A stretch of 36,852 nucleotides of DNA from Actinobacteria bacterium UBA3086 (GTDB lineage Bacteria; Actinomycetota; Coriobacteriia; Anaerosomatales; UBA3086), in assembly GCA_002367305.1 (NCBI GenBank), contig DFBG01000162.1, forward strand, positions 1-36,852, written 5' to 3'. Positions within the stretch are counted from its first letter, which is position 1. Every line of letters begins with the position of its first letter. Shown in pieces: positions 11,846 to 36,490 of this stretch. The notes beneath the pieces were generated by a model. It saw only the letters and a program-made list of their open reading frames with translations. It was not told the DNA's origin and did no database searches. The translations under genes were made by a program, and so were the position numbers.

Positions 11846-11871
11846 GTGTGTTCCTGCCGAGAGGAGCTCTC

Positions 11872-18667: not shown

Positions 18668-18711
18668 AGAGGCGCGATTCTCGCCGAATGTGTTGCGTGG
18701 TTGGAGGAGCC

Positions 18712-20109
18712 ATGGAGCTCACACAAAGGCCCAGTCTACGACAGAAGGTCACACTCTCGCCACAGGTCTATCAGGGCTTGAGTATCCTTGCTATGCCCGT
18801 TGCTGATCTGGCGCAACTCGTTGAGTCTGAGATGCTTGAGAACCCCACTCTCGAGGTGGAAGAGGTCGAGCCAGAGGTCGACGATGCCCCTGACGAGCGC
18901 GAGGAGAGGGACGCTGAGGATGAGCGTGCCTGGGATGAATGGCTCGAGATGTATGACGATCTCGATTCCTCCGATCAGGCCGCTCCCCGAGATCCCAATG
19001 CCGAGGCTGTGAACACGGACGACTTTGTCGGTGGTGTCCAGACTTTCGATGAGCACCTGAACAATCAGATCGGCATGCTCGATATCAGCGAAGAGGTGAC
19101 ACACGCCGCTCAGGCGATCGTGGGCTCTCTTGATCGCGATGGTTTCTTCGAGGGCGATCTCGAGGAGATCGCCCTGCAGACCGGCGTGGATACTGCGACT
19201 GCTGAAGAAGCGCTGTTCGCCGTTCAGCAGTTGGACCCGCCAGGTGTAGGGGCGACTGATCTCGCCAGTGCCCTCTCCATACAGATGCAGCATCTGGGCA
19301 TCGAGGAGCCGTTGCTGGAGATGATCGTGCGCGAGCATCTCGATGACATCGCGGCTAACCATTACCGCAAGGTTGCCCGGATGTTGAAAGTGGATGAGGC
19401 GGAAGTGCGTCGGGTCGTGGAGATCATGCGTACACTCAATCCGCGACCGGCGGGAGCATTCTCGCCTGGGCCTTCGCCGGGCTACATCGTTCCAGATATC
19501 ACGCTACGTCGTTTCGATGACGACTGGCTCATCATTGCCAACAACGAGGCAGTGCCCACTTTGAGGGTGTCTCCTCGATATCGCTCAATGTTGCGCAGCG
19601 GATCAAGCGCTGACGATGAGACGCGTCGCTATCTCAAGGAGCGGATTCGATCGGCCGAGAGCTTCATCCGCAACGTGGATCGTCGCAAGGACACAGTCAG
19701 TCGCATCGCGGAGATCATCCTCGAGGTACAGTCTGAATTCTTCGAGGACGGAAAGGGTCCGCTGCGTCCGTTGCGTCTTGAGGACGTGGCAGTTGAGATA
19801 GGTGTTCACCTCTCCACGGTGAGCCGAGGTGTTACCGCCAAGTATATGGATACGCCATACGGACTGTTCGAGCTCAAGCATTTTTTCTCGGGTGGCTACC
19901 GCACGAGACAGGGGTTCGATATTGCGGCGACCAGCATCAAGCAACGTTTGCGTGAGCTCGTAACCGAAGAGGACGCTGCAAAGCCGCTGTCCGATCAGAA
20001 GATCGCCGAGCTGCTGAGTAACGAAGGTGTCACCGTGGCGCGACGCACCGTGGCCAAGTATCGTGAGGAGCTCACGATCGAGCCTTCGTGGGCAAGGCGA
20101 CGCCGATGA
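18712..20109 (+). CDS. rpoN: RNA polymerase sigma-54 factor
   Basis: Region I MELTQRPSLRQKVTLSPQVYQGLSILAMP, an acidic region II, and the C-terminal RpoN box ARRTVAKYR. ATG 18712 follows GGAGGAG; the ORF-track start is 18688. Confidence 0.95.
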   Translation: MELTQRPSLRQKVTLSPQVYQGLSILAMPVADLAQLVESEMLENPTLEVEEVEPEVDDAPDEREERDAEDERAWDEWLEMYDDLDSSDQAAPRDPNAEAVNTDDFVGGVQTFDEHLNNQIGMLDISEEVTHAAQAIVGSLDRDGFFEGDLEEIALQTGVDTATAEEALFAVQQLDPPGVGATDLASALSIQMQHLGIEEPLLEMIVREHLDDIAANHYRKVARMLKVDEAEVRRVVEIMRTLNPRPAGAFSPGPSPGYIVPDITLRRFDDDWLIIANNEAVPTLRVSPRYRSMLRSGSSADDETRRYLKERIRSAESFIRNVDRRKDTVSRIAEIILEVQSEFFEDGKGPLRPLRLEDVAVEIGVHLSTVSRGVTAKYMDTPYGLFELKHFFSGGYRTRQGFDIAATSIKQRLRELVTEEDAAKPLSDQKIAELLSNEGVTVARRTVAKYREELTIEPSWARRRR

Positions 20110-21635: not shown

Positions 21636-22990
21636 ACGAGCGGATTCTGATCGCTGATGATGAGAAGAACATGCGCTGGGTTCTGAGTCAGGCGCTCGAG
21701 GCCGCTGACTTCGAGGTCATTCAGGCCGAGAATGGGAAACAGGCTCTCAAAGCGATAGAGGAGCAACAGCCTGATGTCATGATTCTCGATCACCGGATGC
21801 CTGCGCCAGACGGTATGGAGGTTCTGCGCACGCTTCGTTCAAAGGACTACACCTTCCCCGTCATCATGCTCACTGCTCACGGGAACGTGCAGCTCGCGGT
21901 CGAGGCGATCAAGGCCGGGGCGAGTGAATATCTCACCAAGCCTTTCGATCTCGAGGAGCTCAAGCTGGCGATCGACAAGGCCATCCGCATGAGCGGGCTG
22001 GCTGCTGAGGTGCAGCGGCTGCGTGACGAGGTGGGACGCGACTACGATATGGAAGGCATCGTCGCAGGTGACGAGGGCATGCTGGCGGCTCTCGATACCG
22101 TGCATAAGGTGGCACCCACGAATGCGACCGTCGTCGTCTACGGTGAGTCCGGAACCGGCAAGGAACTCGTTGCTCGGGCGATCCATGAGCTTTCCGAGCG
22201 CAAGGGCAAACCGTTCGTATCGATCAGTGCCGGTGCGCTGCCGGAGACACTGCTCGAGAGCGAACTCTTCGGCTATGAGAAGGGGGCATTCACCGGTGCA
22301 GTCAGTGCGAAGCCTGGACGCTTTGAGATGGCCAACGGTGGCACTCTGTTTCTGGACGAGATCGGCGACATCACCCCTGCAGTTCAGGTCAAACTCCTGC
22401 GTGTGCTTCAGGAGCGTCGTTTCGAGAGGCTCGGGGGGACCCGGACCATCGAGGTGGATGTGCGCGTAGTAGCTGCCACCAATCGAGATTTGCAGCAGTT
22501 GATCGTGGACGGGGAGTTTCGAGAGGATCTCTTCTACCGCCTCAATGTGGTTCCGCTCACGCTTCCGCCACTCAGGCAGAGGTCGAGCGATGTGCCCATG
22601 CTCGTCGCTCATTTTCTGGAGAAGTTCAATGCCGGGAGCAAGCATATTTCCGATGAAGCTATGCAGGCGCTCATCGGGTACAAGTGGCCAGGCAACATTC
22701 GCGAGCTGGAGAACACGATAGAGCGACTTATCATCCTGTCCCATGAGGATAAGATCACCACGGCTGATCTACCGGTGGAGATTCGCGCGGGTCTTGGGTC
22801 GTTCTCCGATGCCAGGCCGGGTGGGTTCCTGTTGCCCGATGAGGGGATAGACCTCGAGGAAGTGGAACTCGATCTGGTCAGACAAGCACTTGAGCGATCA
22901 GGGGAGTCGGTACCGAAGGCGGCCAAACTCTTGGGACTCACGACCAAGACCATGGAGGCGCGCCTGTCACGGTTCGGCCTAAAGAACTGA
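21632..22990 (+). CDS. sigma-54-dependent response regulator (NtrC family enhancer-binding protein)
   Basis: ATGA overlap with the kinase stop. Receiver domain (ILIADDE, ILDHRMP, TKPF), AAA+ domain with GESGTGKE and GAFTGA, and a C-terminal Fis-type HTH. Confidence 0.95.
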
Positions 22991-23039
22991 TTACCGTTCA
23001 CCGTCTCGCTGCCACCACTCATCGGAGCGGCCGGTTTCT

Positions 23040-23055
23040 TGGCACACCAGTTGCA
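23040..23055 (+). promoter_or_regulatory. sigma-54 (-24/-12) promoter TGGCAC-ACCAG-TTGCA
   Basis: Full match to TGGCAC-N5-TTGCW. It lies 49 nt after the activator stop and 45 nt before the AAGGAG-ATG of the next gene. Confidence 0.75.
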
Positions 23056-23099
23056 CTTCTCGGAGAAAGATCAACTGTACGTCCAAAAAGGAGCAACGG

Positions 23100-23483
23100 A
23101 TGGCCGGCAGGCCACATACACGCTTGTTCATCATCATCACCACTGCGGTGTCGTTGGTGCTCTCTCTGTTCGCTGTGCTGCATATCGCCAACGGTGGGTT
23201 GGGATTCGAGGGATGCACTGCTACGGCGACGTTCGGTTGGCTTATTCCGTTACTCTCAGGAGCGCTGGTTGCGGTAATCGCGTGGATGCTCATCGATGGG
23301 GACCGTGGTGGTCCCTCGGACTCGGTCAAGGGCGACCCTGAGGCTACCGTCTGCATGTATTGTGGGAGCGGCATCCTTCAAGAGTGGAAGCTCTGCCCCT
23401 ACTGCGGGCAGTTGAGGGAGTGCGACATGCGTATCGATCCTCATGCTGGGCGTCGCTCGGTGGAGGATTCACCACAGACCTGA
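23100..23483 (+). CDS. 2-TM membrane protein with C-terminal cytoplasmic zinc ribbon
   Basis: AAGGAG RBS, two hydrophobic helices, and C-terminal CMYCG-x10-CPYCG. Confidence 0.6.
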   Translation: MAGRPHTRLFIIITTAVSLVLSLFAVLHIANGGLGFEGCTATATFGWLIPLLSGALVAVIAWMLIDGDRGGPSDSVKGDPEATVCMYCGSGILQEWKLCPYCGQLRECDMRIDPHAGRRSVEDSPQT

Positions 23484-23509
23484 CTCTGCCACCGATGTTA
23501 GGGGTGCAC

Positions 23510-23737
23510 ATGGCTTCATTGACCAACACTGTGCTTGAGACAACGGGACTGCATTGTCGGTCCTGTTCCATGATGGTGGATATGACGGTCGGCGATCTCG
23601 ATGGGGTTGTCTCGTCCGAGACTGATTATGTGACCGGAGTCACCAAGGTGGAATTCGATTCTGACGTCGTTACCCTAGAGGGTATACTGGACGCGATTCG
23701 TTCTGCAGGATATGGTGCAGAGATTCCAAGCAAATAG
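23510..23737 (+). CDS. heavy-metal-associated (HMA, CopZ-like) domain protein
   Basis: 75 aa with the ferredoxin-like HMA pattern. The metal loop is GLHCRSC instead of GMTCxxC. The long ORF-track N-terminal extension (23360) overlaps the previous gene. Confidence 0.7.
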   Translation: MASLTNTVLETTGLHCRSCSMMVDMTVGDLDGVVSSETDYVTGVTKVEFDSDVVTLEGILDAIRSAGYGAEIPSK

Positions 23738-23764
23738 CCTGAATTGCGAGAGGACATTCTGACA

Positions 23765-24316
23765 ATGACTGAACAGGCGTACACCACTGGCGCACGCACG
23801 AAGTATCTCCTTATCGGCGTTATCGTGGTGCTCGCGTTCTTTGCCAGCTATGGTTTCGCGGCATCCCGGAGTGCATCGGTGAGTGAGGCGAATCTGGAAA
23901 CTGGCGGTGCGTATCCTGCTGCCTATGGTACGGATACCTCTCTCGCTTGTGACGGCGCAGAGTCGGGTGGCTGTGGTGGCGAAGGAGAAGGCGAAGAGTC
24001 GGGCGGTTGCGGTGGCGGTTCAGGTGCCGTGGTCGAAGGTGCGACCGTTTCGGATGGCACGGTGCAGTCCATTGCCATCGACCTGTCTGAGGGATTCTTC
24101 AACCCAAATGTGATCTACGTCGAGGCTGGCACGCCGCTCGTGCTCGAGTTTGGTGAGGGACATGGATGCATGGCCGAGGTCATGTTCTCAGAGTTCGGCA
24201 TCTTGGAAGATGTCACCGATGGTGGCGCAGTGATCGAGCTGCCCGCCCTCGAGATCGGCGAGTACGGATTCTCCTGCGGCATGGAGATGGTATACGGCGT
24301 TCTTGTCGTCCGCTAG
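23765..24316 (+). CDS. signal-anchored protein with Cys/Gly-rich linker and cupredoxin-like C-terminal domain
   Basis: One N-terminal TM helix, then the linker ESGGCGG-EGEGE-ESGGCGG, then a beta-rich domain ending EGHGCMAEV...YGFSCGMEMVYGVLVV. This resembles EfeO-type cupredoxin-like domains. Confidence 0.5.
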   Translation: MTEQAYTTGARTKYLLIGVIVVLAFFASYGFAASRSASVSEANLETGGAYPAAYGTDTSLACDGAESGGCGGEGEGEESGGCGGGSGAVVEGATVSDGTVQSIAIDLSEGFFNPNVIYVEAGTPLVLEFGEGHGCMAEVMFSEFGILEDVTDGGAVIELPALEIGEYGFSCGMEMVYGVLVVR

Positions 24317-24409
24317 TAGACACACGTTTGCCCATGACGCCTGCCTGGGGATATTGTTTCGCAGGTGATGATATGTATGGTGCCCTACGGTGCCTGCCGC
24401 GCATTCTGA

Positions 24410-25153
24410 GTGAAGGGACTTCTCGTGGACGGTAGTTCGATCGGCTTCGTCGCGGCATTCGTCGCGGGTCTTGTGTCGTTCCTTTCGCCCTGCGTTCTTC
24501 CGCTGATACCCGGATACATCTCATTCATGACCGGTCTCAGTATGAGCGAGCTCAATGAGGGCAAAGGTGGCGTCCGGGCGATTCTCGCGCCGTCACTGTT
24601 GTTCGTCGCTGGTTTCTCATTCGTGTTCGTGGCCCTGGGTGCCTCGGCATCGGTCCTGGGCTCGGTCCTCATGGACTATCGAAGTCAGCTCGAGATAGCC
24701 GCCGGTGTTCTCGTGTTCCTCCTGGGCTTCTTCATGCTGGGCATCATCAAGGTGCCCTGGCTGTATGGTGAGGCTCGCATGGAGATGTCGCGCTCCAGGA
24801 GTTTCGGCAAAGGTGCCGCGCTCATCATGGGCATGGCCTTCGCCTTCGGATGGACCCCGTGTGTCGGACCGATCCTGGGTTCGATCCTTGCACTCGCTGG
24901 GTCCAGTGGCAGTGTCGGTAGGGGTGCGGCGTTGTTGGCCGTCTATTCGTTGGGACTCGGCGTACCGTTCATACTCACGGCACTGTTGTTCGGTCGCATG
25001 ACCGGTGTGCTGAGGTGGCTGAACCAGCGTTCACTCGTGATCAACCGCGTGGCCGGAGCGTTGCTCATGGCTGTCGGCGTGCTCATCTTCACTGGCCGCC
25101 TCTCCATCCTTGCCGGATGGCTCACCAGGATCCTCCCGACGATCGAACTCTGA
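24410..25153 (+). CDS. ccdA: CcdA/DsbD-family transmembrane thiol:disulfide electron transporter
   Basis: FLSPCVLPLIPGY and GWTPCVGPILG are the two conserved Cys motifs of CcdA. Six predicted TM helices. Confidence 0.9.
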   Translation: MKGLLVDGSSIGFVAAFVAGLVSFLSPCVLPLIPGYISFMTGLSMSELNEGKGGVRAILAPSLLFVAGFSFVFVALGASASVLGSVLMDYRSQLEIAAGVLVFLLGFFMLGIIKVPWLYGEARMEMSRSRSFGKGAALIMGMAFAFGWTPCVGPILGSILALAGSSGSVGRGAALLAVYSLGLGVPFILTALLFGRMTGVLRWLNQRSLVINRVAGALLMAVGVLIFTGRLSILAGWLTRILPTIEL

Positions 25154-25211
25154 TACTCGTGCGATAGCGGCTTCTCCACAGGTGTTCTACCATGGACACT
25201 GAGGGGGACAT

Positions 25212-28200
25212 GTGTTGCACGTGGGATTCGGGCGCAGCCGCATAGCGAGCCTGGCAGCCAGACTCGTCGCCATAACAGTCGTGATCGTGATTCTTGCTGT
25301 CACGATCATCAGTACGACAGCGCTAGCCGGAGTGTATGAGCTTGCCCGGCACCAAGTGGGCGAACGTCATCAGACGCTCGTAGATGGCCTATCCGTTGAG
25401 ATCGAAACTCGTTTGAGTGGGGTTTCTCGGGTCGTTCAGCGAGGTGCTGCCAGCGCTGCAACTGCCGAGGCCGGGGCCTTCGACTCCGAGACGTTCCTTC
25501 AAGAGTACGCGGACGGGGTCACGTACATCGATAGGCTCGTGATAGCCCGTGATGGAGTGGTTCTCGGAGTGCTGCCGGTCTCTGACCCACCCACATTCTT
25601 GACGGGGGATGCTTCTTTACCCGCGACTTCTGTTAATCGCACCTTCTTCTATGAGCCGTTGGCCGATGGCACCATGGCGGTTTGGGCAACTCAGGAGACG
25701 CAGAACGGGCTCACGGTCTATGCAAGGATGCGCTCCAATCTCCTGGCCGAGAGGGTCTTGGAAGCTTCTGATGTGATGCAGGAGCGCGTGGCACTGGTCG
25801 TGGACGAGGACGGAGGAGTCATCGCGGAAGGGCGAGGAGCCTCCGACCTCGTGCTCTCTTCCGTTGAGTACGAGCACGATGACTCGATCGGTGGCGCAGT
25901 CAGCGTGAAGACCGTGGACGGGGTTTCGCTCATCGGTCGTTTTGCGGACTCAGACCCGAATCTGGGAGTCAACTGGCGCATCCTTGTGGCGGAGCCACGG
26001 ACTACGATGCGCGATGCGACGTTCGATGCGCTGATTCCTGCTGTGCTTGCTCTGATACTGACGGGATTCGTCTCGGTCATCATCGCCACCATTGCCGGTC
26101 ATAGACTGATTCGACCGCTGAAGGATCTTGAAGCGCGCGCGTATGAGGGTGCAGTAGGAGCGTACGTCCGCCCGATACGTGCGGAGCGTGCCGACGAGGT
26201 CGGTCGGTTGGCTGAAGCCTTCAACATGATCGCGCTGCGGTTGAATTCGCTTCACGATCTTTCTCAGCTTCTGGCCAGTTCATCACATTCGGATGAGGTG
26301 CTTGATCGGATACTCTCGGCTACCTCCCACATAGTGGGCACGGGGAGTGTGGCGATCTATCTCTTTGATGACGAGAGGACGTCGCTCTATCCTGCTCGTG
26401 CCAGAGGGTCGCTTCAGCACACGGCGCAATCGGTCGTGGACCACAAGAGCGGATGGCTCATGAATGCGGCCCTCGCAGGCGGCCCGACAGCGTTCTCTGG
26501 ATTGCCTCCCGAACTGGCGGCGACATTCGATGTGGAGGATTCCGACGAGCCCATCACCTGTCTAACCGCTCCTCTTTCTGTCGCCGATGACGTGCTTGGA
26601 GTCATTCTGATCATTCGACGGAATCGTCGTTCCATGACGCAGGCGGAAACGGAGATGATTCGAACTCTCTCTGCGCAGGCTGCCATCGCCGTGCACAACG
26701 CACATCTCTTCGCCGAAGAGTCCGCTTCAAGACGTGAAGCGGAGCTTATGCGAATAGTGGCGGAACATCTCGCTCGTCCGGGCGACCTTGCTGATTCGCT
26801 TGTCTCAGTCTGTGACATTGCCTGTGAACTTCTGGGCGGATACGTCTGCAAACTCGCTGTGATCGAACCGCAGCAGTTCGGTCTTTCGATGCCTGAGACT
26901 TCCGTGAACACGGCACTCTTGCAGCTCTGGCGAGAACAAGAACCCAAACAAGGGCAGGGTGTAATGCTCGTGGCGGGGCAAGATCAACGAGCCGATGCCC
27001 TTCTCGGGTTGTTTAGCGCACAGCAGGTGGAGCTGATCCCTGTTGTGAGGTCCAGTGGTCCTGCAGGGGTATTTGCCCTCTTCCACGCGGAGAACCATGG
27101 TCCCCCAACTGGCCATGAACGGACTCTCGCTGCTGCCGTGGCCCAACAGGTTGCTCTCGCACTTGAGAATGCCTTCTACTTCCAGGAGGCCCAAAATCGC
27201 ACTGCGGATCTCGAGACCGTATTTCGGATCAGCCAAGCAGTCAGCTCTTCGTTGCAGATCAAGGTCGTACTCAACCGTGTACTCGATGTGGTCCAGAAGA
27301 TCTTCTCGGCGGACGCGGTCGCCCTCATGACTTACGACGAGTCCCGCAAGCGACTGAGCACCGCAATGGCGCGGGGGACAGTTTCCTCTGGGCTGCTGCA
27401 CTACGATCGACCCGTCGGTGATGATGTGATCGGCTGGGTGTTCGAGTCTCACGAACCGACGCGTATCGACGCGCTGGATACGGTCGATGATGATCTGGCC
27501 AAGGGCGTGGCGCGCAGAGGACTCAGGTCATTACTCACTGTGCCGTTGCTGGCTCGGGGTCGCAGCATCGGCGTGCTTTCCGTGTTCTCAAGGGAGCCGA
27601 ATGCCTTTGGCGATGCAGATATGGAGCTGCTGCACACGTTCGCCTCGCAGGCGGCGTTGGCCATCGATACGGCAAATGTCTACAGTCGGGAGCACAAGGT
27701 CGCCTCCGTTCTGCAGTCGAGTATTCTTCCTGCGGAGTTGCCGGTGTTCGATGAGCTTGAGACCTCGACCGTCTACTTGCCCTCTGGAGGCGAGTCGGAG
27801 ATCGGTGGTGACTACTACGACGTGTTTCGCGCCCCGGATGATCGCATTGTTGCCGCGATGGCGGATGTTTGCGGTAAGGGCATCGAAGCGGCGACCAAGA
27901 CGTCGATGATCAAATACACGATCAGGGCACTCGTGGCTGCCGGGTATGAGCCGGCCCAAGTGCTGTCGGAAGTGAACCGTATGGTCGCAGCGGGAGGGCG
28001 TTCGACGGACATTGTGACCGTGTGGATCGGTTTTCTGGATGTCGCTGCAGGTGAGATCACACATGCTGATGGAGGGCATCCGCCTGCTCTGTTGCTCCGT
28101 GCGGACGGTGGTGAGGTTGACCGTCTCGGTGTGACCGGACCATTGCTTGGTGCGGTCGATAACGCAGTGTATGAGCAGGAGAGCACTCGTGTTCAGCAGG

Positions 28201-28427
28201 GAGATGTCGTTCTCCTGTACACCGATGGAGTGACCGAGGCGCGAGAAGGGAATAAGTTCTTTGGCGAGGGTCGAGTCCGCCGCGCTCTGCATTACGGTGG
28301 CTCGGCCGTTGACGTATCGCAGCGGTTGCACGCTGCACTTGATCGCTTCGTCCGCGGCGACCTGCGTGATGACGCCGCGGTACTTGTTTTGAAGATTCAC
28401 CCTCAGCATCAAGAGACGAGCACGTGA
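25212..28427 (+). CDS. membrane sensor: extracytoplasmic domain-HAMP-3xGAF-PP2C (SpoIIE/RsbU-type) phosphatase
   Basis: TM helix, about 250 aa of extracytoplasmic domain, second TM helix, HAMP domain (RPLKDLE...EVGRLAEAFNMIALRL), and three GAF-like segments. PP2C motifs are GGDYYDVF, DVCGKG and TDGVTEA. Confidence 0.85.
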   Translation: MLHVGFGRSRIASLAARLVAITVVIVILAVTIISTTALAGVYELARHQVGERHQTLVDGLSVEIETRLSGVSRVVQRGAASAATAEAGAFDSETFLQEYADGVTYIDRLVIARDGVVLGVLPVSDPPTFLTGDASLPATSVNRTFFYEPLADGTMAVWATQETQNGLTVYARMRSNLLAERVLEASDVMQERVALVVDEDGGVIAEGRGASDLVLSSVEYEHDDSIGGAVSVKTVDGVSLIGRFADSDPNLGVNWRILVAEPRTTMRDATFDALIPAVLALILTGFVSVIIATIAGHRLIRPLKDLEARAYEGAVGAYVRPIRAERADEVGRLAEAFNMIALRLNSLHDLSQLLASSSHSDEVLDRILSATSHIVGTGSVAIYLFDDERTSLYPARARGSLQHTAQSVVDHKSGWLMNAALAGGPTAFSGLPPELAATFDVEDSDEPITCLTAPLSVADDVLGVILIIRRNRRSMTQAETEMIRTLSAQAAIAVHNAHLFAEESASRREAELMRIVAEHLARPGDLADSLVSVCDIACELLGGYVCKLAVIEPQQFGLSMPETSVNTALLQLWREQEPKQGQGVMLVAGQDQRADALLGLFSAQQVELIPVVRSSGPAGVFALFHAENHGPPTGHERTLAAAVAQQVALALENAFYFQEAQNRTADLETVFRISQAVSSSLQIKVVLNRVLDVVQKIFSADAVALMTYDESRKRLSTAMARGTVSSGLLHYDRPVGDDVIGWVFESHEPTRIDALDTVDDDLAKGVARRGLRSLLTVPLLARGRSIGVLSVFSREPNAFGDADMELLHTFASQAALAIDTANVYSREHKVASVLQSSILPAELPVFDELETSTVYLPSGGESEIGGDYYDVFRAPDDRIVAAMADVCGKGIEAATKTSMIKYTIRALVAAGYEPAQVLSEVNRMVAAGGRSTDIVTVWIGFLDVAAGEITHADGGHPPALLLRADGGEVDRLGVTGPLLGAVDNAVYEQESTRVQQGDVVLLYTDGVTEAREGNKFFGEGRVRRALHYGGSAVDVSQRLHAALDRFVRGDLRDDAAVLVLKIHPQHQETST

Positions 28428-28447
28428 CGATACAAATGGAGAGTGGG

Positions 28448-29224
28448 ATGGCTGTAGGGATCCGCCGGGAAGGGCAGTCCGGTACGTGTATCGTTGATTT
28501 CGAAGGTGATATTGATATCTCCGTTGTGCCCGAATTCCGCCGTGAACTGGAGTTTGCACTCGCCGGAGGGTGTTCTCATATCGTGATCGACCTCAGTCGT
28601 GTGGAGTATGCGGATAGTTCAGCGCTGGGACTTCTCGTTTGGCTGGATCGCCGTTTGACTCCTATCGAGGGGCGTTTGGTCCTAGCGGGAGTGACCCATG
28701 ATGTCGCTCGTGTTTTGGAGCTTTCCGGTCTCGTGTCGGTGGCTAGATCGATCACTACCACGTCCAGCGTGAAGATCGCGCTCGAAGGACTCGATTTCCA
28801 AGAGGCTCAAGTAGATCCTCTGTGGACGCGTCGGGTCTTGATGAGCGCTGACGTGGATGTGCTGGGGGATATGCGGCGGGAGGTCTGCCGCATAGCTGGG
28901 CCGCTCGGATTCTCTGAGGCCGCTCTATTCGATATCAAAGTGGCGGTCGGGGAGGCCCTAGCGAATGCAGTGCGACACGGCTCATCCAGTGTCGAGGACA
29001 GTATTGAGATCGTGATAAGGGCCTACGATGATCGCTTGGTCATCGATGTGGAGGATACCGGGGTAGGCTTCGATGGCGAGCACAATGGGGCAGATGATCC
29101 GTATGCATCTGGCGGTCGGGGCATAATGTTCATGCGGGCACTTATGGATCGCGTGGAATTCTCGTCACGGGAGAAATCGGGTACGCTCGTGACACTCGTG
29201 AAGCATCGAGCTCCCGTGGGCTAG
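28448..29224 (+). CDS. fusion protein: STAS anti-sigma-antagonist domain plus RsbW/SpoIIAB-type serine kinase (HATPase) domain
   Basis: N-terminal half has the STAS pattern with the phosphorylatable DSSALG motif. C-terminal half has EALANAVRHG (N-box), DTGVGF and GGRGIMFM. ATG 28448 follows GGAGAG. An alternative GTG at 28424 overlaps the phosphatase stop (GTGA). Confidence 0.8.
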   Translation: MAVGIRREGQSGTCIVDFEGDIDISVVPEFRRELEFALAGGCSHIVIDLSRVEYADSSALGLLVWLDRRLTPIEGRLVLAGVTHDVARVLELSGLVSVARSITTTSSVKIALEGLDFQEAQVDPLWTRRVLMSADVDVLGDMRREVCRIAGPLGFSEAALFDIKVAVGEALANAVRHGSSSVEDSIEIVIRAYDDRLVIDVEDTGVGFDGEHNGADDPYASGGRGIMFMRALMDRVEFSSREKSGTLVTLVKHRAPVG

Positions 29225-29254
29225 AACACGCGGCGGGCAACAGGAGGATCATTC

Positions 29255-30352
29255 TTGGAAGCCCGTCGAATTCTGATTCTCACAGCGTCGTACGGCGGCG
29301 GCCATCGCGCCGTTTCATCGGCGATAGAAGCTTACTATCGTGACTATTCAGACGCAGAAGTCCGCGTGATCGATCTTCTCGATGTTGCGGCCCCTCAACT
29401 CAACGTTCTGGCCAAATTCGCCTATCAGCGATCGGAATCGTTCTTTCCGACAATGACCGGCTCATTCTCCCAGCTGGAGGAGGCGTTCCCCGATAGCCAG
29501 GTCGTCCAGGAGGTCAAGGCGAGCGGTCTGGGTCATCTGGGTAGCATCATCGATGATTGGGCGCCTCATGCGGTCGTTTCCGTGTGTCCACTAGCAGCCG
29601 GGATTGCTGCAGAGGTGAAGGCGAATCGAGCATTTCTCGCCGTTTCTGTATCACTGGACTATCGGGGTGAGAGTTCATGGATCCATCCGTCGACGGACAT
29701 CCATTTCGTGCCCTGTAAAGAGACGCGGGAGGATCTCGTCGTGCGCGGTATTCCCTGGGATCGGATCGTCGTGTCCGGCATTCCGGTCTCCAAGAGCTTC
29801 TCTGAGCCTTGTTCGCGCACTGATGCTCTATCGGAGTTCGGCTTGCTGGATCGCTTCACCGTGCTGTTCACGCCGACAACGGGTACTCCAGCGGATATTC
29901 GCGAGATCGTGAAGCGCCTGCTTGATCAGGGAGTGCAAGTCGCGGTGGTCGCAGGACACAACGACAGACTGCGACACAGTTTGGAGGCGCTTGGGGAGTC
30001 GAATCGATTTTTACGGGTATTCGGTTATGTAGAGGATATGCCTAGTATGATGTGTGCAGCAGATCTCTTCGTGGGCAGGGCCGGTGGACCTGGGCTCCCC
30101 GAGGCGCTTGCGTCCGGATTGCCGTTGATCATCATGGGCCCGGTCCCCGGACAGGTGTTGCCGAATGTGGATTTCATCGCCAACTACGGGGCAGGACTGT
30201 ATGCTCGGGACGGCGATGACGTGGTCGAGAAGGTCAAGTTCCTGTCATCGCATGTGGAAAGGTTGGCCCAGATGGCAACGGATGCCAGGCTCATGGGTAG
30301 ATCAAATGCAGTGCACACTGTGTGTGAGCGCGTCGCCGCCGCTGTGCGGTGA
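29255..30352 (+). CDS. GT28-family glycosyltransferase (MGDG synthase / UgtP-like diacylglycerol glycosyltransferase)
   Basis: The N-terminus ILILTASYGGGHRAV matches the UgtP/MGDG-synthase N-terminal motif, and a GT-B C-terminal half follows. TTG start after AGGAGG. Confidence 0.7.
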   Translation: MEARRILILTASYGGGHRAVSSAIEAYYRDYSDAEVRVIDLLDVAAPQLNVLAKFAYQRSESFFPTMTGSFSQLEEAFPDSQVVQEVKASGLGHLGSIIDDWAPHAVVSVCPLAAGIAAEVKANRAFLAVSVSLDYRGESSWIHPSTDIHFVPCKETREDLVVRGIPWDRIVVSGIPVSKSFSEPCSRTDALSEFGLLDRFTVLFTPTTGTPADIREIVKRLLDQGVQVAVVAGHNDRLRHSLEALGESNRFLRVFGYVEDMPSMMCAADLFVGRAGGPGLPEALASGLPLIIMGPVPGQVLPNVDFIANYGAGLYARDGDDVVEKVKFLSSHVERLAQMATDARLMGRSNAVHTVCERVAAAVR

Positions 30353-30374
30353 AGGTCAAAATGGGAGGCCGAAG

Positions 30375-30944
30375 ATGGAACTGCGCGATGCTCTGAAAGC
30401 GCGTCGATCGATCAGATCGTTCGAGGACCGTCAGATTCCGGACGATCTGCTCGAGTCAGTAGTCGGTGCCGCATCATGGGCCCCGTCCGCATTCAATGAG
30501 CAGCCGTGGCATTTCCGTGTCGTTCGCCACGAACTGCGCGAGAAGCTCCTGGGGATCATGGTGCAGAACACCGCGTACCTCGAGGAGTTCATGAAGGTGC
30601 TTGGGCGTGAAGCGACGCCTGAGGCTATACAGTGGTACAGCGATCTCGGTGGCGCGCCGGTGATCCTAGCGTGCACCATGCCCATTGTGGACGACGAGTT
30701 CCGCGCCATGAACAAGTACCTCTCGATCGGTGCCGCAGTTCAGAACATCCTTCTTGCTGCGACGGACGCCGGTCTCGGCTCGTGCAGCGTTACGTTCTCA
30801 TTCTGGGTACGCGACGAGATCGGGGAGCTGCTCGACATCCCCAAGGACCGCATGCTCGTAGGGTTGATTGCGCTTGGGTATCCACGCGCGCTTCAGGCAC
30901 CCGTTCCTGAGCACAGGCGCGACATAGTCACGTTCATGGACTGA
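30375..30944 (+). CDS. nitroreductase-family flavoprotein
   Basis: LKARRSIRSF, APSAFNEQPW and a C-terminal GYP pattern. ATG 30375 follows GGGAGG. The ORF-track start 30165 overlaps the upstream gene. Confidence 0.8.
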   Translation: MELRDALKARRSIRSFEDRQIPDDLLESVVGAASWAPSAFNEQPWHFRVVRHELREKLLGIMVQNTAYLEEFMKVLGREATPEAIQWYSDLGGAPVILACTMPIVDDEFRAMNKYLSIGAAVQNILLAATDAGLGSCSVTFSFWVRDEIGELLDIPKDRMLVGLIALGYPRALQAPVPEHRRDIVTFMD

Positions 30945-31645
30945 TGTCTGTGGTGAGAGCTGTATTCTTCGACGTCGGCAACACGCTTGTATATCCCTAT
31001 CCGAGCGTTTCCGAGGTCTGTCACGAACTGCTTTCGCGCGCCGGGCATGAGCGCGATCTGGGTCTCATCGACTCCTACATGCCGCTCGTCGATGAGTACT
31101 ACGAGGATCGTTATCGCGAGGACGACACCTTCTGGACTGATAGAGAAGAGACGTCCAAGGTTTGGATCGGCATGTATTCTCTTCTCTGTCGCAAGCTGGG
31201 AATCGAGGACATGGCCGAGGAGCTGGCACGGGCGGTCTACGACGAATTCGGGTTTCCACATCGCTGGCGAACGTATGAGGATGTCGCACCCGCGCTCACG
31301 CGACTGCGCTCGCAGGGTCTGCGTGTCGGCATCATCTCCAATTGGGATGATCGTCTTGTCTGTCTCCTCGATGGACTCGGTGTCAGTCACTTGCTGGACA
31401 CGGTGATCTCCTCGGCGGATGTGGGTCTTCACAAGCCCGATCCTCGTATTTTCGAGCTGGCATGCGAGCGGCTCCAAGTCGAGCCGCATGAGGCGATGCA
31501 TGTGGGTGATCATCACTACGCTGATGTCCTTGGAGCGGACGCGGCCGGGATGGTTCCCGTTCTCATCGACCGTCACGGCGGTCAGGCTCCCAGCAGCGGC
31601 CGTTTTCTCCGCACTCTTGACGAACTGGACGAATACCTGCGATAG
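30944..31645 (+). CDS. HAD-superfamily hydrolase (subfamily IA-like)
   Basis: Motif I FFDVGNTL, motif II ISNWD, motif IV VGDHHYADVLGADAAGM. The start overlaps the upstream stop (TGATG). Confidence 0.8.
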   Translation: MSVVRAVFFDVGNTLVYPYPSVSEVCHELLSRAGHERDLGLIDSYMPLVDEYYEDRYREDDTFWTDREETSKVWIGMYSLLCRKLGIEDMAEELARAVYDEFGFPHRWRTYEDVAPALTRLRSQGLRVGIISNWDDRLVCLLDGLGVSHLLDTVISSADVGLHKPDPRIFELACERLQVEPHEAMHVGDHHYADVLGADAAGMVPVLIDRHGGQAPSSGRFLRTLDELDEYLR

Positions 31646-31653
31646 GGGATCTC

Positions 31654-33363
31654 ATGCGCCGTTTTGGTACGTGGCTGTTGTTCATTGTGGCGATGATCGT
31701 GACGCTGGGCTCCGCATACGGGGCTTACACGTTGGCCGGCTATTCGTGGTCTCAGGTAGTGGACTACCGGAGCCCATTCGCTGACTATGATCGCCCGTGG
31801 ATCAACGAGAGCGGGCCTGCCATCAGAGGGGGCTCAGCCTCTGCCGAGGACACCGTGACACCTGAGTCCAGGCGCGTAGTGCTCGTCATTATCGACGGCC
31901 TGCGTATGGATGCATCGACGACCATGACCTCCCTGGACATTCTGCGCGGCTATGGTGCTGATATGGCAGCCACCACGCCTCAACCCTCACTTTCGTTCCC
32001 GACGTGGACCACCATCCTGTCCGGAGCGCCGCCGCAGATCAGCGGCGTGCCGACCAACTGGTTCGAGAATCCCGTGCCGGTGGAAACTCTGTTCGACACG
32101 TCGCTTGCAGCCGGAAAGACCGTGGTTGTCTCCGCGCCTGACGACTTCTCCATGCTCTACGAGGCGGAGCGCGCCGATGGCTCATATTTCGAGTCATGGA
32201 AAGAGGATGAGTACATGTCCACCCGTATGGTGGACAACGCGATCTCTCTCGTCGCAGAGCACGATCCTGAGCTCCTCGTAGTACATCTTCCTGATGCCGA
32301 TGAGGCTGGTCATCAGTATGGATCGGACTCGGATGAGTATCGTTCCACAGTGGGACAGATCGATGCTGATCTCTCGCGTCTGGTCCAGGCCTTGCAGGAT
32401 GATCGAACCGCATTCGTCATCTGCGCCGATCATGGGCACATCCCGACAGGTGGTCACGGCGGTTGGGAGCGGGATGTCACGGTCGTTCCGGCGATATTCA
32501 CGGGCGCGGGCGTTCGTCTCAACAGTGGCTCGATCGATCAGATAGATATCGCTCCTACGGTAGCGGCGCTGCTCGATATTGATATTCCGCGTAACGCAAT
32601 GGGCAGGGTTCGCGGCGAGGTTCTGCTCGCGGGTGAGGAGTACGCCGAGGAGTTCGGATCTGCTCACTACTCCGCCTTCGCTGAGGAGTATGTCGCGACT
32701 CTGGGAGGCACGACCGGGTTCTCTATCAAGTCGTCCACTGATGCACGCGCGGCGATCGATGCGATGACGCAGGAACGCGAGGACAGCGATCGCAACGATC
32801 GACTTGCGATGGCGCTCGCATTGGTGGGAGCTGCACTCGGTGCACTCGTCGTACTCGGCCTGGGCTCGTGGCGTGCCTTAGTGGCGGCGTCGGCGGGAAC
32901 GGCTGCGTACTATGCGATCTACAATGGCCTCTACTTCGTTTTTCACGGACATCAGTGGTCCCTATCGGCATTCAACAGTGAGGATCTCGTGGAGGCGTTC
33001 TTCAACCTCCGGATGATCGAGGCTACGGTGGCAGCCGTGCTTGGAGTCATCGTTGCCGGCGTCGTGTATCCGTACCTCAGGCGGCACCCCCAGGGACCGC
33101 GCCAGGGCTTCTTGGGTGGATGGCTCGCCCTGGGAACTGCCACGGTTCTTACCATGCAGGCGACGTTGGCGTTCCAGGTCGCATGGTTCCTCTGGCGCTA
33201 TGGGGCAGAGATCTCCTGGAGGCTGCCGAACCTCAAGTGGGGCTTCAAGTACGATCTCGATCTCATCCAAATGACCGGACTCGGAGCGGCGGTATTGGTC
33301 GCGCCGTTGGTCACGTACCTCGTCGGGCGGTATCATCCCAGAGTACGGCGCGCGACCGAGTAG
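31654..33363 (+). CDS. alkaline-phosphatase-superfamily (type I phosphodiesterase/NPP-like) membrane protein
   Basis: N-terminal TM helix, then a catalytic domain with IIDGLRMD, SLSFPTWTTILSG, DADEAGHQYG and CADHGH, then about five C-terminal TM helices. Confidence 0.7.
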   Translation: MRRFGTWLLFIVAMIVTLGSAYGAYTLAGYSWSQVVDYRSPFADYDRPWINESGPAIRGGSASAEDTVTPESRRVVLVIIDGLRMDASTTMTSLDILRGYGADMAATTPQPSLSFPTWTTILSGAPPQISGVPTNWFENPVPVETLFDTSLAAGKTVVVSAPDDFSMLYEAERADGSYFESWKEDEYMSTRMVDNAISLVAEHDPELLVVHLPDADEAGHQYGSDSDEYRSTVGQIDADLSRLVQALQDDRTAFVICADHGHIPTGGHGGWERDVTVVPAIFTGAGVRLNSGSIDQIDIAPTVAALLDIDIPRNAMGRVRGEVLLAGEEYAEEFGSAHYSAFAEEYVATLGGTTGFSIKSSTDARAAIDAMTQEREDSDRNDRLAMALALVGAALGALVVLGLGSWRALVAASAGTAAYYAIYNGLYFVFHGHQWSLSAFNSEDLVEAFFNLRMIEATVAAVLGVIVAGVVYPYLRRHPQGPRQGFLGGWLALGTATVLTMQATLAFQVAWFLWRYGAEISWRLPNLKWGFKYDLDLIQMTGLGAAVLVAPLVTYLVGRYHPRVRRATE

Positions 33364-33449
33364 CAGTTCGTGCGTGCGTTTTCTGCAATCTGACCGTTCC
33401 GCTGGGTATTCTCTCGGCGCTGAACGTTGATGCTGGAAGGGGCGTGCTC

Positions 33450-34943
33450 ATGGCGTTCAAGGATCTGCGCGAGTACATCGCGCTGCTCGAGTCAAAAGGT
33501 CAGCTCAAAAGGGTTACTGCGGCTCTCGACCCCGTGCTTGAGATTGGTGAAGTGACCGATCGCGTGAGCAAGAAGGGTGGCCCCGGCCTTCTGTTCGAGA
33601 ATCCCGTGAACCGAGAGACTGGCGAGGCGTACGACATGCCGGTCGCGATCAATCTCATGGGCAGTTACGACCGCATGGCGTGGGCCTTGGGCGTCGACTC
33701 CGAAACGGGTACCTGGAAGGGTCTCGATGAGGTCGCCCAGCGACTCATGGATTTGCTGCCTCTGGACATGCCTGCGAGCGTCAAGGGTAAGCTCGACGTG
33801 CTCATGGGGCTCAAGGATCTTGCCGGCGCAGGCGCCAAGGAGGTCAAAGCCAGCAAGGCTCCCTGCCAGCAGGTGGTCCTGCGTGGCGACGAAGTCGATC
33901 TCACCAAGCTTCCCGTGCTCACGACGTGGCCTGAGGACGGTGGCCCGTTCGTGACGCTGCCGCTCGTGGTCACGAGCAATCTCAAGGGTCGTCCCAATGT
34001 GGGCATGTACCGCCTTCAGATCTTCGACAAGAACACGACCGGGCTGCACATCCACTTCCATCACGACGGCAACAAGAACCTCCGTGAATGGAAGGCCGCC
34101 GGACATGATCGGGTGCCTGTCTCCGTCGCTCTGGGTGCCGATCCGTCCACCATCTTCTCGGCTACCGCTCCCGTGCCGCCCATGATCGACGAGTATCTGT
34201 TCTCTGGCATTCTGCGCGGCGAGCCCGTCGAGGTCGTCAAATGCGTGACCAACGACCTCATGGTGCCGGCCAATGCAGAGATCGTGCTCGAGGGATGGTG
34301 CGACCCGGACGAACTGCGCTGGGAAGGCCCCTTTGGCGACCACACGGGCTACTATTCGCTTGCCGACGACTTTCCGGTGTTCCATGTCGAGGCGATCACC
34401 CGCAGGAGTGATGCGATCTATCCGGCCACCATTGTCGGCCAGCCGCCCATGGAGGACTGTTTCCTGGGCAAGGCCACCGAGCGACTGTTCCTGCCCGTCA
34501 TCAAGGCCATGATGCCCGAGGTGATCGACTACGATCTGCCTCTGGAGGGCGTGTTCCATAACTGTGTGATCTTCCAGATCGACAAGGAGTTCCCCGGCCA
34601 GGCGCAGCGTGTCATGAACTTCGCGTGGTCCATGGGCCAGATGATGCTTACCAAGTTCGTCATCGTGGTCGACAAAGAGGTCGACTGCCATGACTACTCG
34701 GCCGTGGCGTGGCGCTGCTTCAACAACGTCGATCCCAACAGGGACCTGCTCATGAGCAAGGGTCCCCTCGACAAGCTCGACCACTCAAGCAACTTCGAGT
34801 CCTACGGCTACAAGCTGGGTATCGACGCGACCCGTCCGTTGCCAGGAGAAGGACATGATCGTGAGTGGCCCGAACCCATGGAGATGACACCCGAGGTCAA
34901 GTCTCGTATCGATGCGATGTGGGGTGACCTGGGACTTGAGTAG
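33450..34943 (+). CDS. UbiD-family prenylated-FMN-dependent decarboxylase (menaquinone late step)
   Basis: MAFKDLREYIALLESKGQLKRV is the typical UbiD N-terminus, and UbiD-like sequence continues over the full length. The ORF-track start 33120 overlaps the upstream gene and is rejected. Confidence 0.9.
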   Translation: MAFKDLREYIALLESKGQLKRVTAALDPVLEIGEVTDRVSKKGGPGLLFENPVNRETGEAYDMPVAINLMGSYDRMAWALGVDSETGTWKGLDEVAQRLMDLLPLDMPASVKGKLDVLMGLKDLAGAGAKEVKASKAPCQQVVLRGDEVDLTKLPVLTTWPEDGGPFVTLPLVVTSNLKGRPNVGMYRLQIFDKNTTGLHIHFHHDGNKNLREWKAAGHDRVPVSVALGADPSTIFSATAPVPPMIDEYLFSGILRGEPVEVVKCVTNDLMVPANAEIVLEGWCDPDELRWEGPFGDHTGYYSLADDFPVFHVEAITRRSDAIYPATIVGQPPMEDCFLGKATERLFLPVIKAMMPEVIDYDLPLEGVFHNCVIFQIDKEFPGQAQRVMNFAWSMGQMMLTKFVIVVDKEVDCHDYSAVAWRCFNNVDPNRDLLMSKGPLDKLDHSSNFESYGYKLGIDATRPLPGEGHDREWPEPMEMTPEVKSRIDAMWGDLGLE

Positions 34944-35874
34944 TACCGCCCAGGAAAATCTCGGCTTCGGCGCGCGGGTGAGTGGCAAGATCGCGATCTT
35001 CCTCGAGCTCGTCAAGTTCGAGCACAGTATCTTCGCGCTTCCGTACGCCTTCATCGGTGCGATCTATGGAGCCGCCTCGCTTGGAGGTTCTAACGATTGG
35101 GTCACCGCCAGCGGATGGCCCACGTGGTCGGCGATCCTCTGGGTGACCGTGGCCATGGTGGGCGCTCGAAGCTTTGCGTTCGTGGTCAATAGGGCCGCCG
35201 ACAAGGAGATCGACGCTCGTAACCCTCGCACTGCGGGCAGGGCGGTTCCTGCCGGGCTGATCAAGGCGTGGGAGCTCTGGCTGTTCTCAGGCCTGGTGCT
35301 CGCGGCGTTCCTGTTCGCTGTCTGGCAGCTCGATCCCATCACTCGCATGCTCTGGCCGTTCGTACTCGTGGCATTTCTGATATATCCCTACACCAAACGC
35401 TTCACATGGCTGTGTCACTACTGGCTGGGACTTTGCCTCGGTCTCGCACCCGTGGGAGCGTGGGTCGCAGTGACGGGCTTGGTGAGCGATCCTGCGCCGT
35501 GGGTCTTTGGTGCCGCCGTGGCACTCTGGACCGCTGGGTTCGATATCATCTACGCTACACAGGATGTCGAGTGTGATATCCGCGACGGGGTCCATAGCGT
35601 GCCGGCTGACCTGGGCGTGGCGCCGGGTCTCGTTCAGACCAAAGTCACGCATGTGGCCACCGTCGGGTTGCTCGTGCTGGGCGGGCTGCTCGTAGGCGCA
35701 GGTTGGCCCCTGTACGTCGCGGTGACCGTCGCGGCGGTTCTGCTCGCGTATGAGAACATGATCATCAGCGCCGACGATCTTTCACGCGTCAACGCTGCCT
35801 TTTTCACCACCAATGGTGTCATTGCCGTCATCATTTTCGTCGGCACTCTCGCAGATCGATTTCTCGCAACGTAA
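34912..35874 (+). CDS. UbiA-family aromatic prenyltransferase (menaquinone late step)
   Basis: Multi-TM protein with NRAADKEIDARNPRT (first Asp-rich motif) and YATQDVECD (second motif). The start is uncertain (ATG 34912, TTG 34936 or GTG 34978). Confidence 0.85.
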   Translation: MRCGVTWDLSSTAQENLGFGARVSGKIAIFLELVKFEHSIFALPYAFIGAIYGAASLGGSNDWVTASGWPTWSAILWVTVAMVGARSFAFVVNRAADKEIDARNPRTAGRAVPAGLIKAWELWLFSGLVLAAFLFAVWQLDPITRMLWPFVLVAFLIYPYTKRFTWLCHYWLGLCLGLAPVGAWVAVTGLVSDPAPWVFGAAVALWTAGFDIIYATQDVECDIRDGVHSVPADLGVAPGLVQTKVTHVATVGLLVLGGLLVGAGWPLYVAVTVAAVLLAYENMIISADDLSRVNAAFFTTNGVIAVIIFVGTLADRFLAT

Positions 35875-35893
35875 CTACTGAAAGGGCTTTGAC

Positions 35894-36490
35894 ATGGGAC
35901 GATATGTGGTCGCGATCACCGGCGCATCCGGAAGCGTGTATGGGTTGCGTCTCATTGAGCAGCTATTGCTTGCCGGCAACGAGGTCGTGTACACCGCCAC
36001 ACATGCGGGGCGCGACGTCATGGGCTTTGAGGTCGGCTTTGATATTCCACCAGAGCAGCCTGCTGAGGCGCTGCTCGAGTTTCTTGAGCTCGATAAGTCG
36101 CTGCCGCTGCGTCATGCGTGCGGCGAGGATCTGTTCGACCCCATAGCTTCCGGATCGCACTCCATGGACGGCATGATCGTGTGTCCTGCGTCCATGGGCT
36201 TCTGCGGCTCGGCAGCGCACGGACTTGCGTCGAATCTGCCCGAGCGCGCGGCAGATGTCATGCTCAAGGAGCGCAGGCGACTCGTGTTGGTCCCTCGCGA
36301 GACGCCGTTCTCGCTTATACACCTGCGCAATTTGACCTCATTGGCAGAGGCGGGAGCCGTAGTCGTTCCGGCGATGCCGGCGTTCTACACGCGACCCACT
36401 ACGCTCGACGAGGCCGTCAACTTCGTAGTGGGCAAGGTGCTTGATGTGCTTGGCGTGCAGCATGAACTCTTTCCTCGGTGGGGCGAGTAG
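35894..36490 (+). CDS. ubiX: flavin prenyltransferase UbiX
   Basis: MGRYVVAITGASGSVYGLRL, MIVCPASM and LVLVPRETP are the UbiX/Pad1 signatures. Confidence 0.9.
   Translation: MGRYVVAITGASGSVYGLRLIEQLLLAGNEVVYTATHAGRDVMGFEVGFDIPPEQPAEALLEFLELDKSLPLRHACGEDLFDPIASGSHSMDGMIVCPASMGFCGSAAHGLASNLPERAADVMLKERRRLVLVPRETPFSLIHLRNLTSLAEAGAVVVPAMPAFYTRPTTLDEAVNFVVGKVLDVLGVQHELFPRWGE

Follow-up and report, generated by a model that had tools for sequence, protein, structure and literature searches.

We analyzed a 36,852-nucleotide stretch of DNA from Actinobacteria bacterium UBA3086, a member of the Coriobacteriia (contig DFBG01000162.1, positions 1 to 36,852, forward strand; the whole stretch is called the window below), and found that the gene at positions 28424 to 29224 encodes, in one polypeptide, an RsbV/SpoIIAA-type STAS antagonist domain followed by an RsbW/SpoIIAB-type serine kinase domain. 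The catalytic and phospho-acceptor residues of this fusion are intact, the residues by which RsbV and RsbW contact each other are conserved on its two halves, and the linkage of its gene to a gene for a sensor phosphatase of the PP2C type is conserved as well. By analogy with the fused proteins SipA and Rv1364c, we propose that the fusion is the core of a partner switch built into a single chain and that the protein held by it is most likely a sigma factor of the sigmaB/F type whose gene lies elsewhere in the genome, a reading to which we give about an even chance.

Domains, motifs and distribution of the fusion

The longest open reading frame of the fusion gene starts with GTG, but the likelier start codon is the ATG at position 28448 (Met9), which leads to a protein of 258 amino acids. 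We prefer Met9 because it was chosen by the gene callers, is preceded by the sequence GGAG 6 nucleotides upstream, and is the position at which the N termini of homologous proteins align. With this start, the stop codon of the upstream phosphatase gene and the start codon of the fusion gene are separated by 20 nucleotides and the two genes do not overlap. The features of the fusion gene are listed here.

28424 to 29224, plus strand: gene of the STAS-kinase fusion, longest open reading frame, 266 amino acids from GTG
28469 to 28744, plus strand: STAS domain, RsbV/SpoIIAA-type antagonist, residues 16 to 107 (PF01740, E 2.3e-18)
28616 to 28618, plus strand: codon of Ser65 (Ser57 in the 258-amino-acid form), the predicted phospho-acceptor in the motif YADSS, aligned with the phosphorylated serine of SpoIIAA (Ser58) and with Ser56 of RsbV
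28844 to 29203, plus strand: RsbW/SpoIIAB-type serine kinase domain HATPase_c_2, residues 141 to 260 (PF13581, E 8.1e-23)
28952 to 28981, plus strand: N box EALANAVRHG, residues 177 to 186, with Glu177 and Asn181
29054 to 29071, plus strand: G1 box DTGVGF, residues 211 to 216
29111 to 29134, plus strand: G2 box or ATP lid GGRGIMFM, residues 230 to 237

All Pfam matches exceeded the curated cut-offs, including a further match of the N-terminal half to STAS_2 (E 2.1e-17). Among the NCBIfam models, TIGR00377 (anti-sigma antagonist) was matched above its cut-off, and partial matches to the RsbW, SpoIIAB, and SpoIIAA equivalogs were obtained. When the Protein Data Bank (PDB) was searched with phmmer, the N-terminal half matched SpoIIAA (1th8_B, E 4e-8), with YADSSALG (residues 62 to 69) overlying FMDSSGLG of SpoIIAA, and the C-terminal half matched RsbW of Bacillus subtilis (6m36_A, E 2.3e-9). 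The kinase half belongs to the GHKL fold, contains the N, G1, and G2 boxes, and lacks HisKA; its residue Glu177 aligns with Glu49 of RsbW, which contacts Ser56 of RsbV. Together with the Foldseek comparisons described below, these results confirmed that the protein consists of an RsbV/SpoIIAA-type STAS domain and an RsbW/SpoIIAB-type serine kinase domain in this order. An initial annotation made from the sequence alone had described such a fusion, and its description holds: the hidden Markov model search that it had suggested returned PF01740, STAS_2, and PF13581, and the four motifs that it had quoted (YADSSALG, EALANAVRHG, DTGVGF, and GGRGIMFM) are intact, neither the serine nor the kinase boxes being degenerate on alignment.

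The fusion could in principle be an artefact of assembly, in which a frameshift merged two separate genes, and the initial annotation had named a frameshift check for this reason. We give this explanation practically no credence. The identical 258-amino-acid protein was found on contigs of three independent samples, and neither these assemblies nor the relatives split the reading frame into two genes. Among 5.8 billion proteins there were 815 matches, of which the best 120 (55 to 74% identity) all contained both domains; those with a named entry were labelled "anti-sigma factor antagonist" and came from metagenome-assembled genomes of Coriobacteriia. When one genome of each prokaryotic species was scanned, 308 species genomes were found to encode a relative of the fusion, and the best 80 of these 308 all carried full-length fusions and were from uncultured Coriobacteriia or Actinomycetota.

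Conservation was assessed in two alignments, one of 25 and one of 81 sequences. In the larger alignment, the Asp-Ser of the acceptor site, Glu and Asn of the N box, Asp and Gly of the G1 box, and Gly-Arg-Gly of the G2 box were invariant, Ser65 being present in 81 of 81 relatives. When 1.84 billion representatives clustered at 50% identity were scanned in full with HMMER, 407 matches below 1e-10 were obtained. Domain models applied to the best 150 of these 407 clusters identified 96 with the STAS-then-kinase order and 12 with the kinase-then-STAS order, and the remainder were mostly single-domain sequences, many of them short. Named members of the fusion family belong to Collinsella ureilytica (WP_222198735.1), Atopobiaceae, and Armatimonadota. 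The STAS-then-kinase order is therefore common and occurs across at least two phyla. The initial annotation had implied that it is unusual, which does not agree with these counts, nor with the publication of the same order for SipA.

The motifs were also followed into a distant set of 93 full-length STAS-then-kinase cluster representatives with 27 to 53% identity. Asn and Glu of the N box were present in all 93 of them, the equivalent of Arg23 of RsbW in 92, the G2 box in 90, and the G1 box in 78. At the acceptor site, Ser or Thr was found in 85 of the 93 sequences, preceded by Asp in 83 of the 93.

Predicted docking interface and linked sensor phosphatases

The crystal structures of RsbV-RsbW define hydrogen-bond pairs between antagonist and kinase (PMC7340262). 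For the fusion, the residues of the kinase half were placed by HMMER alignment to RsbW. Those of the STAS half were placed by BLASTP alignment to a sequence that we take to be that of RsbV. Its residues 23, 53, 56, 84, 87, and 91 agree with those given for the structures (PMC7340262). The corresponding pairs are as follows.

RsbW Arg23 and RsbV Asp23 (PMC7340262): Arg151 of the kinase half and Asp31 of the STAS half
RsbW Asp42 and RsbV Arg84/Arg87 (PMC7340262): Asp170 and Arg96, the latter aligned with Arg87
RsbW Lys44/Ser48 and RsbV Tyr53 (PMC7340262): Lys172 and Tyr62
RsbW Glu49 and RsbV Ser56 (PMC7340262): Glu177 and Ser65

In all four pairs, the residues on both halves of the fusion are identical to those of RsbV and RsbW. 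All eight interface residues were invariant in the alignment of 25 sequences, and seven of the eight in that of 81 sequences, with Lys172 conserved in less than 90%. Both identical and conserved on the two halves, these residues are the strongest new argument that the halves would dock in the way of RsbV on RsbW, with Ser65 offered to the catalytic Glu. The proposal of the initial annotation that the protein may act in cis as a phospho-switch gains support from this conservation.

A structural model was calculated with AlphaFold2 from the 81 relatives. Its domains were confidently predicted (mean predicted local distance difference test score 82.8), and in the model only approximately 6 to 8 linker residues join the STAS domain, from its last helix, to the first strand of the kinase. 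A Foldseek search with this model returned SpoIIAB and RsbW with TM-scores of 0.82 to 0.91, SpoIIAA with a TM-score of 0.88, and also the RsbW domain of Rv1364c (3ke6).

Two genes in the window encode sensor proteins with a PP2C phosphatase domain.

25212 to 28427, plus strand: sensor phosphatase, presumed eraser of the STAS phosphate, with transmembrane (TM), HAMP, GAF, GAF, and SpoIIE/PP2C regions (SpoIIE E 8e-45, Pfam)
7313 to 9748, minus strand: second sensor PP2C with MASE3, PAS, GAF, and SpoIIE domains (Pfam), adjoining opp ABC genes

The first of these shows that the phosphatase is, as annotated initially, a separate gene upstream of the fusion gene, and a partner-switching trio of PP2C phosphatase, STAS domain, and GHKL serine kinase is thus encoded together at this locus. 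When the neighbourhood was surveyed by tblastn of the window proteins against 85 related loci, a PP2C gene was found immediately upstream of the fusion gene in 82 of them. Other sensor-PP2C genes with differing sensor domains lie directly 5′ of the fusion gene in Collinsella, in Atopobiaceae, and in one other lineage. The gene order in Collinsella and Atopobiaceae is opp ABC, GAF-SpoIIE, fusion; in the other lineage, the upstream gene encodes PAS-PAS-SpoIIE and overlaps that of the fusion. At four loci (L023, L079, L086, and L089) the fusion gene follows directly after the gene of a DsbD/CcdA-like membrane protein, with no PP2C gene between them. In two distant lineages the fusion gene comes right after DsbD, in one case with a GAF-SpoIIE gene 4 kb upstream, and in one distant relative the fusion gene is an orphan. 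The PP2C linkage therefore recurs in distant relatives while the rest of the neighbourhood varies.

The second PP2C protein may provide a further input to the same STAS domain. At locus L089, a GAF-SpoIIE gene occupies the place corresponding to 7313 to 9748, likewise beside opp ABC genes. The PP2C catalytic domains of the distant GAF-PP2C proteins and of the two window proteins are all about 30% identical to each other. Since the GAF-SpoIIE and opp genes adjoin the fusion gene in Collinsella and Atopobiaceae, and the gene at 7313 to 9748 adjoins opp genes here, the window lineage may have split an older arrangement of opp, PP2C, and fusion genes, with which the situation at L089 can be compared.

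From these features we infer the following cycle. The kinase half would use ATP to phosphorylate Ser65 of the STAS half, and the membrane sensor PP2C encoded at 25212 to 28427 would remove this phosphate on sensing its signal, as may the PP2C encoded at 7313 to 9748. The dephosphorylated STAS half would then dock on a kinase half via contacts of the RsbV-RsbW type, either within one chain or between the two chains of a dimer, and docking would displace the protein held by the kinase half. The identity of this protein is the most conditional element of the scheme; SipA and Rv1364c, taken as analogues, make a sigma factor of the sigmaB/F type from another part of the genome the most likely candidate.

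The proposed cycle resembles the Bacillus systems RsbU/RsbP-RsbV-RsbW-sigmaB and SpoIIE-SpoIIAA-SpoIIAB-sigmaF in its PP2C phosphatase, its STAS domain with a phospho-serine, its GHKL serine kinase, the four interface residue pairs, and perhaps in having two PP2C inputs, comparable to RsbU and RsbP. In Bacillus, however, antagonist and kinase are distinct proteins, the ratio between them is important, and the operon includes the sigma gene, whereas here both are joined 1:1 in one chain, without linkage to a sigma gene.

A different view of such fusions was put forward for SipA of Actinoplanes missouriensis, whose authors propose that the two halves are constitutively bound and that the serine has no switch function (PMC10733313). 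Applied to the protein studied here, the STAS half would be a structural cofactor of the anti-sigma domain. We consider this improbable. In the 81 relatives, no variation is seen in the acceptor Ser, in the catalytic Glu, or in any of the ATP-binding boxes, and the PP2C gene regularly lies directly upstream; without a phosphorylation cycle, this pattern is hard to explain.

Candidate targets of the proposed switch

The proposal that the fusion holds a sigma factor rests on two characterized proteins. SipA (AMIS_54230) comprises 243 amino acids, with a STAS domain at residues 6 to 103 and an RsbW-like HATPase domain at residues 158 to 239; its halves bind each other, and it serves as anti-sigma factor of the adjacently encoded sigma-SsdA (PMC10733313). 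Rv1364c of Mycobacterium tuberculosis contains PAS, PP2C, kinase, and STAS domains in one chain of 653 amino acids, autophosphorylates Ser600 of its STAS domain, removes this phosphate by its PP2C domain, and binds SigF (PMC10950880, PMC9138534). The order phosphatase-kinase-STAS that the initial annotation had given for Rv1364c is correct. SipA is the closer match: a comparison of the domain maps shows in both cases a single chain of about 250 amino acids from an actinomycete, with an N-terminal STAS domain and a C-terminal RsbW-like HATPase domain. Rv1364c shares the presence of kinase and STAS domain in one chain, but in the order kinase-STAS and with the PP2C domain in the same chain, whereas the phosphatase here is a separate membrane sensor. 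In contrast to the fusion gene, sipA adjoins a sigma gene, ssdA, whose product itself has a STAS domain. Furthermore, the report on SipA describes neither phosphorylation nor a partner phosphatase, whereas here a PP2C gene is located directly upstream and the phospho-switch residues are invariant.

Several results weigh against the proposed scheme. The predicted template modelling score of the AlphaFold2 model was 0.55, so that the relative placement of the two halves was not confidently predicted. Among the scanned open reading frames of the window, the only sigma gene found with Pfam was that of sigma-54 (rpoN, 18688 to 20109), and genes of the sigma-70 family were detected neither in the window nor in its flanks, covered over about 2.4 kb on the upstream side and about 10 kb on the downstream side. 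On longer contigs the upstream flank carries genes for TIM, iPGM, and SecG, and the downstream flank genes for UPF0114, a cold-shock protein, TerC, a diacylglycerol kinase, RNase D, exonuclease VII, HIT, and a RACo-type protein. The statement of the initial annotation that no sigma partner other than sigma-54 is in view thus extends to both flanks, where it had considered that an RsbW-regulated sigma gene might lie. No sigma-70-family gene was present near the fusion gene in the seven related loci for which Pfam tables of called genes were available. In the remaining loci, the genes within 8 to 10 kb were recognized only by similarity to non-sigma genes of the window, with the exception of a housekeeping rpoD 3.5 kb from the fusion gene in an Armatimonadota locus. 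An ssdA-like gene, encoding a sigmaB/F/G-type factor with a C-terminal STAS domain, was found neither in the window nor in its flanks or the related loci. A literature search on the sigma factor repertoires of Coriobacteriia listed no paper mentioning this class.

Because SipA, a fusion of the same order, acts as an anti-sigma factor, the lack of a nearby sigma gene is no strong argument for a non-sigma output. In Actinomycetota, many RsbW-type anti-sigma genes are unlinked to the genes of their sigma factors.

An enzyme or regulator, for example an envelope or glycolipid enzyme or a second-messenger enzyme, might nevertheless be controlled directly by the STAS half through its phosphorylation state or by the free kinase half, as in the cases of HsbA, SiaC, SypA, and the STAS-glycosyltransferase All4160 of Anabaena. 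The absence of a linked sigma-70-family gene in any of about 90 loci would be in agreement with such an output, and partner-switch-like modules with non-sigma targets have been published. HenR-All4160 of Anabaena is a partner switch acting on a STAS-bearing glycosyltransferase (PMC13555669), and SiaABCD of Pseudomonas is described as a non-sigma partner switch (PMC9239204). Both resemble the present system in that PP2C and kinase act on a STAS-type domain with an output other than a sigma factor, and both differ from it in that the kinase is a protein of its own and the STAS domain is either part of the output enzyme or bound to it, whereas here the STAS domain is fused to the kinase. In the window (glycosyltransferase family 28, GT28) and in an Armatimonadota relative (PMT_2, PEMT), the fusion gene has membrane glycosyl- or lipid-modifying genes as neighbours. 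On the other hand, GT28 is absent from this position in 39 of the 85 loci, no single neighbour other than PP2C is conserved across the orders of Coriobacteriia, and the only two studied fused relatives, SipA and Rv1364c, both bind sigma factors. We therefore regard a non-sigma output as possible but doubtful. In this case, the PP2C protein and the fusion would form a self-contained serine phospho-switch of Coriobacteriia, including human gut and oral genera, and of at least one other phylum. It would operate without a sigma-70-family factor and, by being docked or undocked, control a partner of another kind, for example an enzyme of envelope or lipid modification, an idea that we put forward only tentatively.

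The GT28 gene itself is described here as a neighbour only.

29255 to 30352, plus strand: GT28 or MGDG-synthase-like glycosyltransferase (Pfam, NCBIfam)

It matched models of diglucosyl-diacylglycerol synthase with E 1e-53 but far under their cut-offs. A GT28 gene lies downstream of the fusion gene in only 46 of the 85 loci, and in the others a nitroreductase gene directly follows the fusion gene; loci with and without GT28 are interspersed along the identity ranking. GT28 is not a conserved output because it is missing at this position in the other 39 loci, and it was rejected as an obligate output or partner. The suggestion of the initial annotation that the adjacent glycolipid/envelope genes may be the output is accordingly not supported. 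The adjacency of DsbD and fusion genes is kept more widely than the link to GT28. In the Armatimonadota locus (L096, metagenome-assembled genome GCA_029551395.1) the fusion homologue at 8001 to 8810 is located between genes for a PMT_2-type membrane glycosyltransferase and a PEMT-like protein, upstream of dnaG-rpoD at the distance given above; this is a second membrane glycosyl- or lipid-modifying neighbour and may be a coincidence.

Finally, the fusion might belong to a sigma-54 circuit, being transcribed from a promoter at 23040 and acting back on sigma-54 or on an activator of the NtrC type.

23040 to 23055, plus strand: perfect sigma-54 -24/-12 promoter, TGGCACACCAGTTGCA, upstream of the gene string starting at 23100

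From 23100, an unbroken string of genes on the same strand runs with short gaps through DsbD, PP2C, and the fusion on to UbiX, and terminator prediction gave nothing between DsbD and PP2C or along the string. The order rpoN, sensor kinase, NtrC-type activator, DsbD, PP2C, fusion is, moreover, kept in most of the 85 loci. The PP2C-fusion pair could thus be transcribed from the 23040 promoter; in that case, however, the sigma-54 cassette would act on the pair rather than be regulated by it. The fusion gene occurs without a nearby rpoN cassette in Collinsella, Atopobiaceae, and two other lineages, and sigma-54 therefore cannot be the general target of the family. At L086 and L089, which lack this cassette, the order is CDF, EamA, DsbD, fusion. 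Binding of sigma-54 is not known to us for any protein of the RsbW type. Altogether, we consider a role of the fusion in a sigma-54 circuit very unlikely.

The gap between DsbD and PP2C contained no sigma-54 site conserved in the relatives. A site at 25204 with two mismatches was rejected; it overlaps the PP2C start codon. Comparable sites with two mismatches were present in the DsbD-PP2C stretch of 5 of 72 loci, three of the five being the window's own sequence. A promoter and terminator scan of positions 22900 to 31000 gave nothing above the shuffled background. In a search for RNA sequencing evidence of co-transcription, the stretch was found in one DNA run, from a marine metagenome, and in no RNA run.

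Further genes were recorded at a greater distance from the fusion gene.

9876 to 10589: open reading frame of 237 amino acids without Pfam match, located before the radical SAM gene
10541 to 13032, plus strand: gene of a B12-binding radical SAM enzyme, followed by that of a class I/II aminotransferase
33120 to 36487, plus strand: genes of UbiD, UbiA, and a UbiX-like flavoprotein in a row, downstream of the fusion gene

The Ubi-type genes are present in most of the related loci, with 60 to 84% identity compared to about 50 to 60% for the fusion and about 40% for PP2C.

Fused partner switching in Coriobacteriia

Partner switching with fused components was already known, SipA being the precedent, and the locus described here adds another member; as a sequence feature, it will not surprise a specialist. 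What is notable is that the module, conserved in hundreds of species of Coriobacteriia, is the standard form across this class and is constantly paired with genes of sensor PP2C proteins. It is thus the rule and not an oddity there. Collinsella and Atopobiaceae, which belong to this class, are examples of common commensals of the human gut and mouth, and signalling in these commensals has hardly been investigated. With substrate and kinase fused 1:1, the problems of stoichiometry and cross-talk inherent to classical partner switches fall away, and the module therefore offers a clean system for asking whether docking occurs within a chain or across a dimer. As cultured carriers exist, the module also allows one to ask what is controlled by a partner switch without a linked sigma gene.

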